A stretch of DNA of 64,000 nt from Gammaproteobacteria bacterium (GTDB lineage: Bacteria > Pseudomonadota > Gammaproteobacteria > Ga0077554 > Ga007554): contig JADDKJ010000002.1 of NCBI GenBank assembly GCA_033717875.1, positions 2,820 through 66,819 of the forward strand. The letters are read 5' to 3'. The notes beneath the pieces were generated by a model. The model was given only the letters and a program-made list of their open reading frames with translations. It searched no databases and was not told the DNA's origin. Positions 27,039-34,281 of the stretch are shown here, in pieces; within the stretch, counting starts at the first letter, position 1; the number at the start of each line of letters is the position of its first letter. The position numbers were made by a program, and so were the translations under genes.

Positions 27039-27374
27039 TCAGTGCGGATGCTCGTCGGACGGTTCCTTGTAGCGCAGCACTTCTTGCAAGGAACGGAAAG
27101 TGATCGCATCGAAATCACGAAACATGAAACCGACGCCATCGCCTGTCGCACGCACGACCTTGGCCCTGATTTTATGCTTTATCGGTTTGCCCCCTGACTT
27201 CAGCATGAAAATCAGTTCGACGTGCGCTTCCAGCGGCAGGGGCAACTCCGCAGCTTCGAGAAATACCCCGCCCAGGCCGATGTCCCGGGCCTTGCGCACC
27301 CCGACTTCTCCGCCCTTGTAAAAAATTCCGACATCTACGTGTATGGGCGTCCGCGTTGCCCAGCGGCGTTCCAT
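27039..27374 (-). CDS. PilZ domain protein (small, single-domain)
   Basis: 111 aa. Basic RxxxR-like segment (RRWATR) and DIGLGGVFLEA (DxGxGG) motif of c-di-GMP-binding PilZ domains. Confidence 0.7.
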   Translation of the reverse strand: MERRWATRTPIHVDVGIFYKGGEVGVRKARDIGLGGVFLEAAELPLPLEAHVELIFMLKSGGKPIKHKIRAKVVRATGDGVGFMFRDFDAITFRSLQEVLRYKEPSDEHPH

Positions 27375-29256: not shown

Positions 29257-30261
29257 ATGTTACCGCGAACTCTCCATTCTGGGCAGCCTTCCCAATGGCA
29301 AAAATTATTGGCCCAGGCGATCAGCGACCCTTTTGAGCTGTTAGCGCGGCTGGGCCTGCCCCCGGACATCCTTCCCCCCAGCGCCATCGCCCGCCGCCAG
29401 TTCTCGCTGCGCGTGCCGCGCGGCTATGTGGCGCGGATGCGCAAGGGCGACCCCGGCGACCCGTTGCTGCGCCAGATATTTCCGCATCAGGATGAAGAAC
29501 ACGATGCGCCGGGATTCAGCCCGGATCCGGTCGGGGATCTCGCCGCCATGCCGCTTCCCGGCCTATTGCACAAATACCACGGCCGCGCCCTGCTGGTCGC
29601 CACCGGGGCCTGCGCCATTCATTGCCGTTATTGCTTCCGCCGACACTTTCCCTATGGCGATGCCAATCCCGCCGCCGGCCAGTGGGACGCGGCGCTGGAC
29701 TATCTCGCCTCGGACGCCTCGATCACCGAGATCATCCTGAGCGGCGGCGATCCCCTCACGCTCACCGACTTGCGCCTGGCGCCCCTGGCGCAGCGGCTCT
29801 CCGCCATCCCGCACCTGAAAAGGCTGCGCATCCATACCCGCCTGCCCGTGGTGTTGCCCGAGCGCGTCGATGACGGACTGCTCGCCTGGCTTGGGAACAC
29901 ACGCCTGAAACCGGTCATGGTGATCCACGCCAACCACGCCAACGAGATCGACGATCAGGTGCGCCATGCCCTGGCGATGCTGGCCGAGGCGGGTGTGACG
30001 CTATTCAACCAATCGGTGCTGCTGCGCGGAGTGAACGACAGCGCGCAGGCATTGGCCAACCTCAGCGAAACGCTGTTCGACAGCGGCGTCACGCCCTATT
30101 ACCTGCACCTGCTGGACAAGGTGCGCGGCGCCACCCATTTCGACACCGGCGCCTCCCGCGCCGAAACGCTCCTGACCGAGCTGCGCAATCGCCTGCCCGG
30201 CTATCTCGTCCCGCGCCTGGTTCGCGAAGAAGCGGGCGCCCCCAGCAAATTACCTTTGTAA
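29257..30261 (+). CDS. epmB: EF-P beta-lysylation protein EpmB (lysine 2,3-aminomutase-like radical SAM)
   Basis: 334 aa. [23 protein letters not shown] parallels E. coli EpmB DWLTQLADVVTDPDELLRLLNI. Radical-SAM CxxxCxxC ([11 protein letters not shown]). Divergent from efp. Confidence 0.9.
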
Positions 30262-30525: not shown

Positions 30526-32277
30526 ATGATGGACAATTGCGATCTGAGACTATACCTTCCGCCCAAGCAGGAATCCCAGAATCTGGCCTGCGAGCCCCAC
30601 CCTCCCAAGGTGAAGGAATGGCTGGAACGGCTGCCGTTAAGCAATACCGGTGAAACCGCACGCCTGGTTTATCACGAACTGAAGGCGCTGAACCGGATGA
30701 GCATCGCCATCCAGTCGCGGCTCCAGATTCTCGAATTGTTCAAATCGCCGGTGCGGCACATCACCGGCGAACTGAAAAAACATTATCTTGGCGCGCCACT
30801 GCCGCTGGCCGAGATCAACTTCAAGGCCGCCCACCTGGTCCGCGAACTCCACGCGGAGATGGCCAATGGTTACAAGATCATCGCCACCAGCCTGCTGACC
30901 AATGAAGCCACGGCCAGCATGACGCTCCCTCACCTTCATCGCGCCATGCGCCATCTCAGCGAAATGGCGCTGACTTCTTATCTGATGTACGCACCATGCC
31001 CGCAAACGCTATGGCGCGACCTTCATGAGATCTACCGCTTCACGGAACAGAAGAAGCTTCATGAAAGCCCCTTGCCGGACAACGAGGATACGGCGGGCCG
31101 GCCACGCAGCATCAGCGAAATGTACAAACACGCGCTGCTGCTGGCCCTGGCAAATCCTTACCAGCTCGCCCAGGAAGGCATCATGGAAGTCACGACGGCG
31201 CTCAACATGCTGGCCTCACATAGCCATCTGAACACGCTGTCCAGCCCGGCCGATGCGACAGGATCGTTCGTCATCAACCTGGAAAAAGACGCGCCGCCGA
31301 TGTCACTGGCGAACAACAAGGATTGCGGCCTTGATTCCTGCCGGGCACTCGACACCACGGACCTGATCCATCGCCTCTACCTTGCCGCAAGCGCCATCGA
31401 AGCGCCCGAACCCTCTCAGGAAGACAGCGATGAACCGGCACCGCTGTCAGCCGGCCTTGCACGCTGGCTGATCTCGGCCTGGGGCATCGTTTCCAGGCGG
31501 TCCTTGCCGCGTCTGCGGAAAACCGGACATGTCGTTGTCACGACGGGGCTGGACGCCATTTATAACGCGCTCAGCAGAACTTCCGTGGTGGATGCGGCGC
31601 ACTCCTTCAGGAAAAAGGACACATCCGTGGCGGAAAAAGCGCCTGGAGAAACAACCGCCGCCGTGCTGTCACGCGGCGATCATTTCAAGAAACAGCGCGA
31701 GCAAAAAACGGCCGCGCCGAAAAATCCGCTTTATACAACGCACATCTGCGCGGTCATCAACGAAAGCGAGTGCGGCGCCTGTCTGTCATGGAAAACGAAC
31801 GATACGAAAAAGCCGCCCTTCGACGCCGATGAGCTAATCGCCATTCAGGAAAACAACGAATCAGACACGAACGAATGGAGCATCGCGGTTATTCGCTGGA
31901 CGAAAAACACATCGAACTCGGAACTGGAGTTCGGCCTTGAAATGTTATCGCCTTCTGCGGAGCCGGTGCTTGTCCGCACCCTCCGGGCGGATCGTTCCGA
32001 TGAAACACCCTTGACCGGCCTGTTGTTGCCCGAGCTAAAGGCCAGCAATGCGCCCGCCAGACTGATAACGCCGGCAAAAGCATTCCAGACAGGCGCCCAG
32101 ATCATCATCAACACTCCCGGCGGAACACAGCATGCGTTACTCACCGAGATCACGGAAAGCAACCGCAACTTCACTCAATTTCATTTCATGCCCGTCCAGG
32201 CGGCCAGCCACGGCATGCTTTCCCCCGCAGCGCAGGAACAGGACATGAGCTTCGATCTGTTGTGGAACTCCCTCTAG
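30526..32277 (+). CDS. Hypothetical protein, paralog 1; large N-terminal uncharacterized domain plus C-terminal degenerate PilZ-like domain
   Basis: 583 aa. Full-length homology to the next ORF. C-terminus CAVINESECGACLSW ... WSIAVIRW ... LEFGLEML follows the PilZ (D/N)xSxxG and beta-barrel pattern (compare YcgR DLSLGGMGALL...GVFHFDAQLISI...RLSFRFL). The upstream RxxxR motif is replaced by Lys-rich FKKQREQK. Confidence 0.7.
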   Translation: MMDNCDLRLYLPPKQESQNLACEPHPPKVKEWLERLPLSNTGETARLVYHELKALNRMSIAIQSRLQILELFKSPVRHITGELKKHYLGAPLPLAEINFKAAHLVRELHAEMANGYKIIATSLLTNEATASMTLPHLHRAMRHLSEMALTSYLMYAPCPQTLWRDLHEIYRFTEQKKLHESPLPDNEDTAGRPRSISEMYKHALLLALANPYQLAQEGIMEVTTALNMLASHSHLNTLSSPADATGSFVINLEKDAPPMSLANNKDCGLDSCRALDTTDLIHRLYLAASAIEAPEPSQEDSDEPAPLSAGLARWLISAWGIVSRRSLPRLRKTGHVVVTTGLDAIYNALSRTSVVDAAHSFRKKDTSVAEKAPGETTAAVLSRGDHFKKQREQKTAAPKNPLYTTHICAVINESECGACLSWKTNDTKKPPFDADELIAIQENNESDTNEWSIAVIRWTKNTSNSELEFGLEMLSPSAEPVLVRTLRADRSDETPLTGLLLPELKASNAPARLITPAKAFQTGAQIIINTPGGTQHALLTEITESNRNFTQFHFMPVQAASHGMLSPAAQEQDMSFDLLWNSL

Positions 32278-32442
32278 CAAACCTCGCACCCTGCACAGCC
32301 TGCCAATGACAGGCTGCCAGTCTGACTCCACCTGACAGCGGAAGACCGGCCTCTTCCTCGCATCACCGCTCGTCTAAAGCTTTCAAAAACCGCGCCGATA
32401 ATACGGATAACCCTTTAACGATCAAGCGGGAGGATCAGCGCC

Positions 32443-34281
32443 GTGGAAAATGCCGCCATTCACCTGAGCACTCCGTGCCCGGAAAAGCAACAAACATTGG
32501 CGTTTGACGCGCATCCTGTCAAAGTCAAGTCCTGGATCGACAATCTCCCCTTGGCCAACTCTGGCGAGACCGCACATTCAATCTACCACGCGCTGACTTC
32601 CATCAACCGTACCATCATACCCGTACAGCATCGCTGCCAAATCCTGAAGCTTTTTAGACCACCCCTGCGACATGTCATGAATATGCTCAGAAAACATTAT
32701 ATCGGCGCCTCCTTCCCATTATCCGATACCGGCATGAAAGCCGCGCTGCTGGCCCGTGAACTCCAAATTGAAATGGCCCATGGTTACAAGATCGCGCTCA
32801 ACAACCTGGTGAGCCATCCTTCCACGCTACCTACAACGGCGAAAACGCTGCCGCTACTGCATCACGCGATGCGGTATCTGATCGAAGCGCTGCTCACTTC
32901 GTATCAAACCTACATATCATCCCCGGGCGCCGTGTGGCGGGATATCCACCAAATGTATCTTTATGCCGAGAGCAAGAGGCTTCATGAAAGCGCCATTCAT
33001 GACAAGGAAGATCCGCTGATTTCGCATCATAGTATCAGCGACCTCTACAAACAGGCGCTGCTGTTGGCGCTTGCCAGTCCTTATCACCTGCCGCAACGCG
33101 ACATCGGAACCATCGCAACAACCTTGGACAACTGGCCGACTTACGCGAAATTAAGTTTTGTTATTGACCTTGAAACTCCGCCGGAATCGTTTTTAATCGA
33201 CCTTGAAAAGGACGAACCAACCTCCGCCCCGGCAACACAAAGAAACCCCCGCCTGACATCGTACCGGCTGCTGGAACTCACTGACTTGATCAATCATCTA
33301 CGCGAATTGAGCAGCGAGGAGCATACGCAAACCGACAAGACACCTTCGCATGAACTACTGAGAAAGCTGATCACGGCCTGGGGCGCGCCGGCGAAACGCC
33401 ATTTCTCCCGCATGAATAAAAATAGCCGTATCACCGTTGTGCTGGGCTTGGATGCGCTATATCAGGCCTACGGCGGCGCATCCTCAACGTCCGACCCTCC
33501 AGCAACATCCCTGGAGTTATCCACAAAGAATCAGGGCAAGGCACGGTTCACCAGCCGCCCCGTGATGGGCATGCACGGGCCGCAGGAAAACTGGGACGGC
33601 GAGGAAAGAGAAGACGAAGAGCGGAATGCGCCGGATGTATGGGATGTTACCACTCAAACAGCCTATTTCAAAAAACAACACGCCGAGAAAGAAGCGCAAA
33701 CCCAGAAAAAGGCTGTCCAGGCAGCAGCCCCCTATACAGCGTATGATTGTGAGGTCATCAATGAAAGCGCCGGCGGCGCATGCCTAGCCTGGGAAGGCGA
33801 CAAAAAAGAAGCGAAATTCAAGATCGGTGAACTGATCGGTGTGAGCATCGTCGACCAGTCGGATGCTCACGAATGGGGTGTGGCGGTCATCCGCTGGATG
33901 AAACACGTCAAGAAGTCGCGGATGGAATTTGGCATTCAGATGATCACTCCTACCGCCGAAGCCGTTTCGCTGCGCCACAGCGATGACGCAACACAAAGCG
34001 CGGTTCACGAAATGGGCTTGCTACTGCCGGAAATCAAAGTTATCCAGCAGGCCGCAACGCTGATAGTTTCGAGTCATCTGTTCAGATCGGGAGACAAACT
34101 GACCTGCACTACGAGTGATGGCGTGCTCCGGCAAATCGTGCTCACCGAATTGACCCAAGATAACGGTCTGTTCGCGCAGTTCCGCTTCACGCCGCTGGAA
34201 AGTATGGCCTCTTACAAAACCACCGCATCACAGGAAAAACCGGAGCGCAATGATTTCGAAATGCTTTGGAATTCCATTTGA
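32443..34281 (+). CDS. Hypothetical protein, paralog 2; same architecture as 30526-32277
   Basis: 612 aa. About 40% identical over the whole length to paralog 1 (for example HPVKVKSWIDNLPLANSGETAHSIYHAL versus HPPKVKEWLERLPLSNTGETARLVYHEL). C-terminal CEVINESAGGACLAW...EWGVAVIRW...MEFGIQMI PilZ-like fold with degenerate RxxxR (YFKKQHAEK). Confidence 0.7.
   Translation: MENAAIHLSTPCPEKQQTLAFDAHPVKVKSWIDNLPLANSGETAHSIYHALTSINRTIIPVQHRCQILKLFRPPLRHVMNMLRKHYIGASFPLSDTGMKAALLARELQIEMAHGYKIALNNLVSHPSTLPTTAKTLPLLHHAMRYLIEALLTSYQTYISSPGAVWRDIHQMYLYAESKRLHESAIHDKEDPLISHHSISDLYKQALLLALASPYHLPQRDIGTIATTLDNWPTYAKLSFVIDLETPPESFLIDLEKDEPTSAPATQRNPRLTSYRLLELTDLINHLRELSSEEHTQTDKTPSHELLRKLITAWGAPAKRHFSRMNKNSRITVVLGLDALYQAYGGASSTSDPPATSLELSTKNQGKARFTSRPVMGMHGPQENWDGEEREDEERNAPDVWDVTTQTAYFKKQHAEKEAQTQKKAVQAAAPYTAYDCEVINESAGGACLAWEGDKKEAKFKIGELIGVSIVDQSDAHEWGVAVIRWMKHVKKSRMEFGIQMITPTAEAVSLRHSDDATQSAVHEMGLLLPEIKVIQQAATLIVSSHLFRSGDKLTCTTSDGVLRQIVLTELTQDNGLFAQFRFTPLESMASYKTTASQEKPERNDFEMLWNSI

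Follow-up and report, generated by a model that had tools for sequence, protein, structure and literature searches.

Two adjacent plus-strand genes of the window (the whole 64-kb stretch of DNA that was analysed) very probably encode a tandem pair of FimW paralogs. In Pseudomonas aeruginosa, FimW acts in the cytoplasm as a receptor for c-di-GMP and promotes polar type IV pilus (T4P) assembly. Both window genes are ordinary members of a known family, as neither has lost the arginine motif for c-di-GMP binding, which is invariant, and the unusual part is a lineage-specific duplication. The upstream paralog fimW-A (copy 1, 30526..32277) codes for 583 aa and the downstream paralog fimW-B (copy 2, 32443..34281), which starts with a GTG codon and has GGGAGGA ahead of the start, for 612 aa, and both comprise FimW_N and FimW_C. 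The first-pass annotation had already described these open reading frames as an adjacent same-strand pair with full-length homology of about 40% (measured: 38% identity, E 1e-132) and without TM segments, which agrees with Kyte-Doolittle maxima (19-residue window) of 1.09 for copy 1 and 1.34 for copy 2. It was right in outline in proposing that the proteins are large and soluble and carry a PilZ-type barrel in their C-terminal part, that they represent an old duplication retained as a tandem pair, and that they belong to c-di-GMP and T4P signalling. The taxon that it suggested, Nitrosomonadales or betaproteobacteria, was not confirmed, as the identical NCBI protein is labelled 'Gammaproteobacteria bacterium' and the nearest relatives come from gammaproteobacterial MAGs.

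Both genes match the Pfam families PF27104 (FimW_N) and PF27125 (FimW_C) at E <= 1e-5, and these labels are precomputed hits that were read from the identical contig. Each of the 90 homologues, among them the NCBI protein with 100% identity, is assigned to the same two families, and some family members carry the JGI name 'cyclic-di-GMP-binding protein'. The tie to P. aeruginosa FimW (PA4958) is made by the Pfam family names, the synteny with FimX and common properties. When scanned against Pfam and NCBIfam, neither protein had a significant match, because the library copy used was older than the FimW models. The earlier statement that the N-terminal region matches no family is true of older libraries only, as this region is now Pfam FimW_N. 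Among PDB sequences, no relatives were found by phmmer or by a C-terminal profile search, and the profile found no PilZ protein. The family is large, with 6,200 representatives at 50% identity clustering, and extends far beyond Pseudomonas to uncultured Gamma- and Betaproteobacteria that include sulfur oxidisers. A word-indexed search with the most divergent subgroup reached Thiobacillus but not Pseudomonas, and only two further proteins came from a search of the same type with the family profile.

The primary FimW paper is reportedly that of Laventie et al. 2019. In P. aeruginosa, FimW is a polar protein that binds c-di-GMP and promotes the assembly of T4P (PMC10212136, PMC11656802, PMC12564702), and reviews describe a c-di-GMP-induced dimerisation and polar recruitment. 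The mode of action has been called unknown (PMC11656802, PMC6581867), no interaction with FimX, PilZ or PilB has been demonstrated (PMC11656802), and the FimW phenotypes in P. aeruginosa disagree between studies (PMC12288467; bioRxiv 10.64898/2026.09.03.749161). The pair had been regarded as 'not a described system', but a curated, named family with FimW_N and FimW_C domains exists, and its founding member FimW has been published as an effector through which c-di-GMP acts on T4P assembly. Assignment to a well-characterised family by profile searches had been named in the first-pass annotation as an outcome that would speak against its proposal, and this is essentially what the FimW_N and FimW_C matches provide.

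Each protein consists, according to the structure models, of an all-helical FimW_N domain of ~230 aa, a small linker region of mixed alpha/beta structure, a split PilZ domain, a second beta domain and a conserved C-terminal [DE]FxxΦWxxΦ tail. The models of both copies contain the six-stranded beta-barrel of PilZ, with the barrel core at residues 406-485 in copy 1 (31741..31980) and 433-512 in copy 2 (33739..33978), where it is followed by the second beta domain (523-584) and by DFEMLWNSI, the conserved tail at the C-terminus. The (D/N)xSxxG pattern noticed earlier is found as N412-E-S-E-C-G417 in copy 1 (31759..31776) and as N440-E-S-A-G-G445 in copy 2 (33760..33777), and the WxxAVIRW and EFG strands are present as well. 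RxxxR, which had been declared lacking, is intact in both copies: as R325-S-L-P-R329 (31498..31512) in copy 1, predicted c-di-GMP-binding arginines in invariant alignment columns, and as R319-H-F-S-R323 (33397..33411) in copy 2, where a modelled beta-strand (329-334) follows. RxxxR occurs in 91/91 family members and (D/N)x(S/T)xxG in 90/91, and only five columns of the 91-sequence alignment are invariant (R319, R323, G445, R484, G497).

In classical PilZ domains, the two motifs are roughly 20-30 residues apart. Here, the spacer has 82 aa in copy 1 and 116 aa in copy 2 (family range 35-145 aa), because the PilZ domain is interrupted by a variable and disordered insert, and for the same reason the arginines were missed by simple motif reading and by the PilZ HMM. 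The insert comprises residues 357-400 in copy 1 (31594..31725; pLDDT below 50) and, mostly disordered and located between beta1 and beta2, residues ~343-430 in copy 2 (33469..33732; pLDDT 31-62). The FKKQxxxK strings that had been read as a replacement of RxxxR do exist, as FKKQREQK at residues 387-394 of copy 1 (31684-31707) and as FKKQHAEK at residues 409-416 of copy 2 (33667-33690), but they replace nothing, as they lie inside this low-pLDDT insert, which is the least conserved region of the protein (identity 0.11 between the two paralog clades). All these features are encoded on the plus strand. With PF07238, copy 1 gave no match and copy 2 reached 14.4 bits, below the threshold of 22.5, with coverage of profile positions 22-91; only 3/24 C-terminal family segments were matched (best E 1.9e-4), and there were no matches to the short-spacer members.

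The immediate neighbours of the pair are housekeeping genes, namely epmA, efp, epmB, a GNAT gene and htpX. A canonical small PilZ gene (27039..27374, minus strand; 111 aa with RRWATR and DIGLGG; PF07238 E 1.2e-9, 38.9 bits vs 22.5) lies 3.1 kb upstream of the pair and a cluster of the Chp type some 8.5 kb downstream of it, much as the first-pass annotation had placed them (~3 and ~9 kb), and as the genome encodes this Pil-Chp-type cluster, T4P are plausibly present. We collected related loci with a profile from 11 closer sequences and considered the best 80 loci, all from MAGs; among those listed, 66/76 have a single copy and 10/76 a pair. The small PilZ gene is syntenic with the pair clade: among the loci listed, it accompanies 8/10 with a pair and 1/66 with a single copy. 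In 49/66 of the listed single-copy loci, a FimX-like REC-PAS-GGDEF-EAL gene with a degenerate GGDEF and with E[VI][LF] replacing EAL is located ~170 bp downstream, whereas no FimX-like gene was found in the 64-kb window or adjoining any pair locus (Fisher p = 2.5e-5 for the loci listed), and fimW-B occupies the usual fimX position. In one pair locus (L004), a GGDEF-EAL gene beside the pair was considered as FimX and set aside, as its RRGGDEF and EAL motifs are intact, REC and PAS domains are missing from it and it is encoded on the opposite strand. As fimX is encoded together with fimW in P. aeruginosa (PMC11656802) and is found neither near the pair nor elsewhere in the window, the window does not share the Pseudomonas context; this adjacency is a contextual trait of the Pseudomonas locus that is not needed for homology.

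The sequences show one ancient duplication that defines a clade of 11 uncultured Gammaproteobacteria (the 10 pair loci among those listed and the window). In neighbor-joining trees, the upstream-copy clade has a bootstrap value of 100 and the downstream-copy clade one of 88, and the two together reach 100. All 10 related pair loci share one gene order, both copies are kept with intact frames in all 11 genomes, with orthologues down to 40-83% identity, and dN/dS values of 0.11 and 0.21 indicate purifying selection on both copies. The pair is real and conserved, but only in one small clade, as most of the related loci listed have a single copy. The two paralog clades are equidistant from single-copy FimW (identity 0.298 vs 0.300). 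A domain-specific neofunctionalisation of one copy was considered and set aside, as the clades have just 10 fixed-different sites, which are spread along the protein with no one domain prominent. fimW-A follows epmB after a gap of 264 bp, the gap between fimW-A and fimW-B is short and without a plus-strand terminator-like site, and promoter and terminator scans gave background level only. In the literature searched, nothing relevant was found on FimW paralogs or on PF27104/PF27125, and the duplication clade, the purifying selection on both copies and the position of copy 2 in the place of fimX have not been described there before.

How could such a split receptor function? The insert separates the RxxxR loop and strand beta1 from the remainder of the barrel, which begins with NxSxxG, and c-di-GMP would be clamped between the RxxxR arginines on one side and the NxSxxG face of the barrel on the other. 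This clamping could order the RxxxR/beta1 segment against the barrel, the ordering could switch the oligomeric or localisation state of the protein, and the switched state would then stimulate pilus extension. As FimW has been reported to dimerise, the two paralogs may, by analogy and more speculatively than this mechanism, form a heterodimer or represent receptors with different c-di-GMP thresholds, and they may cover the role of the FimX-like partner that is adjacent in most single-copy relatives and absent beside the pair. That FimW is here an obligate A-B heterodimer with ligand-driven assembly, which has taken over the job of FimX and in which paralog-specific inserts set two thresholds, we consider improbable; if true, c-di-GMP would reach pilus extension by a route that is independent of FimX.

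What alternatives exist for the assignment as c-di-GMP-binding FimW paralogs? The pair could in principle be large PilZ-C proteins with a degenerated motif, i.e. c-di-GMP-blind adaptors like the T4P protein PilZ (PA2960). The sub-threshold PilZ HMM match, which covers only the barrel part and stops short of the RxxxR end, and the Lys-rich FKKQxxxK in place of an RxxxR directly upstream of the barrel would agree with this, but the invariance of RxxxR 82-116 residues further upstream, short family members with near-canonical spacers of 35-44 residues, the confidently predicted beta-strand directly after RxxxR and the published c-di-GMP binding of FimW (PMC11656802) make it highly unlikely. Since the gene nearly always follows epmB and lies beside efp and epmA, a function in translation or EF-P modification instead of pili also has to be considered: epmB (29257..30261 in the window; lysine 2,3-aminomutase-like radical SAM, Pfam Radical_SAM) is found directly upstream on the same strand in 71/76 of the loci listed, with efp adjacent in 66 and epmA in 57. 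However, the gap behind epmB in the window, the FimX-like nature of the other conserved neighbour, a Thiobacillus member that has no epmB nearby and lies near a small PilZ gene instead, and the c-di-GMP motifs and FimW name of the family render this hardly credible. We know of no link between EF-P lysylation and PilZ proteins, and the connection drawn from epmB synteny was set aside for want of supporting evidence.

Other alternatives accept the family and concern the duplication. A redundant duplicate heading for loss, lineage-specific junk in other words, is barely conceivable: the pair is indeed limited to one clade, but the retention of both copies despite the divergence of their orthologues, the intact frames, the low dN/dS values and the preservation of every motif already contradict it. 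A more serious candidate, which we regard as possible but tentative, is subfunctionalisation into two independent FimW homodimers without physical partnership, each with a threshold, pole, growth condition or pilus system of its own to serve. No binding motif has been lost from either copy, each copy is separately under purifying selection, neither clade is closer to single-copy FimW, and the insert as a plausible tuning element is what differs most between the copies, which would all fit; the strict tandem order, the short gap and the lack of a terminator-like site fit a co-expression of partners at least equally well.

The main yield of the analysis is that a false lead is removed, as what looked like a 'cryptic PilZ without RxxxR' is an ordinary c-di-GMP receptor of the FimW family with an insert-split PilZ domain. 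The fimW-fimX adjacency is ancient and widespread, which supports a putative functional link, and the natural clade with a duplicated fimW and no adjacent fimX offers a comparative handle on FimW dimerisation and on the need for FimX. The family breadth, the fimX adjacency and the duplicated clade may thus help FimW research.

Canonical PilZ proteins (PF07238; PA0012/TssZ, YcgR, Alg44, BcsA, PlzD (VCA0042), MotI) differ from the pair in the spacing of the motifs, which are here 82-116 residues apart with a disordered insert after beta1, and in the sequence score, which for the pair stays below the Pfam PilZ threshold. The barrel of the pair moreover resides inside a far larger protein, with a helical domain at the N-terminus and an additional beta domain at the C-terminus. 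The FimX (PA4959)/PilZ (PA2960)/PilB module probably belongs to the same pathway, the c-di-GMP-dependent control of pilus extension, and a small PilZ gene and a Pil-Chp cluster likewise lie near the pair. FimX itself, which has no counterpart in the window, uses a degenerate EAL domain to bind c-di-GMP, and PilZ mediates its contact with PilB. The closest known system is FimW (PA4958), which shares the Pfam two-domain assignment, the soluble nature, the size of ~500-620 aa and the c-di-GMP-type RxxxR and NxSxxG motifs, and most relatives of the pair adjoin a FimX-like gene as published for fimW-fimX (PMC11656802). In contrast to PA4958, the fimW genes described here lack an adjacent fimX, lie downstream of epmB and form a tandem duplicate in uncultured Gammaproteobacteria.

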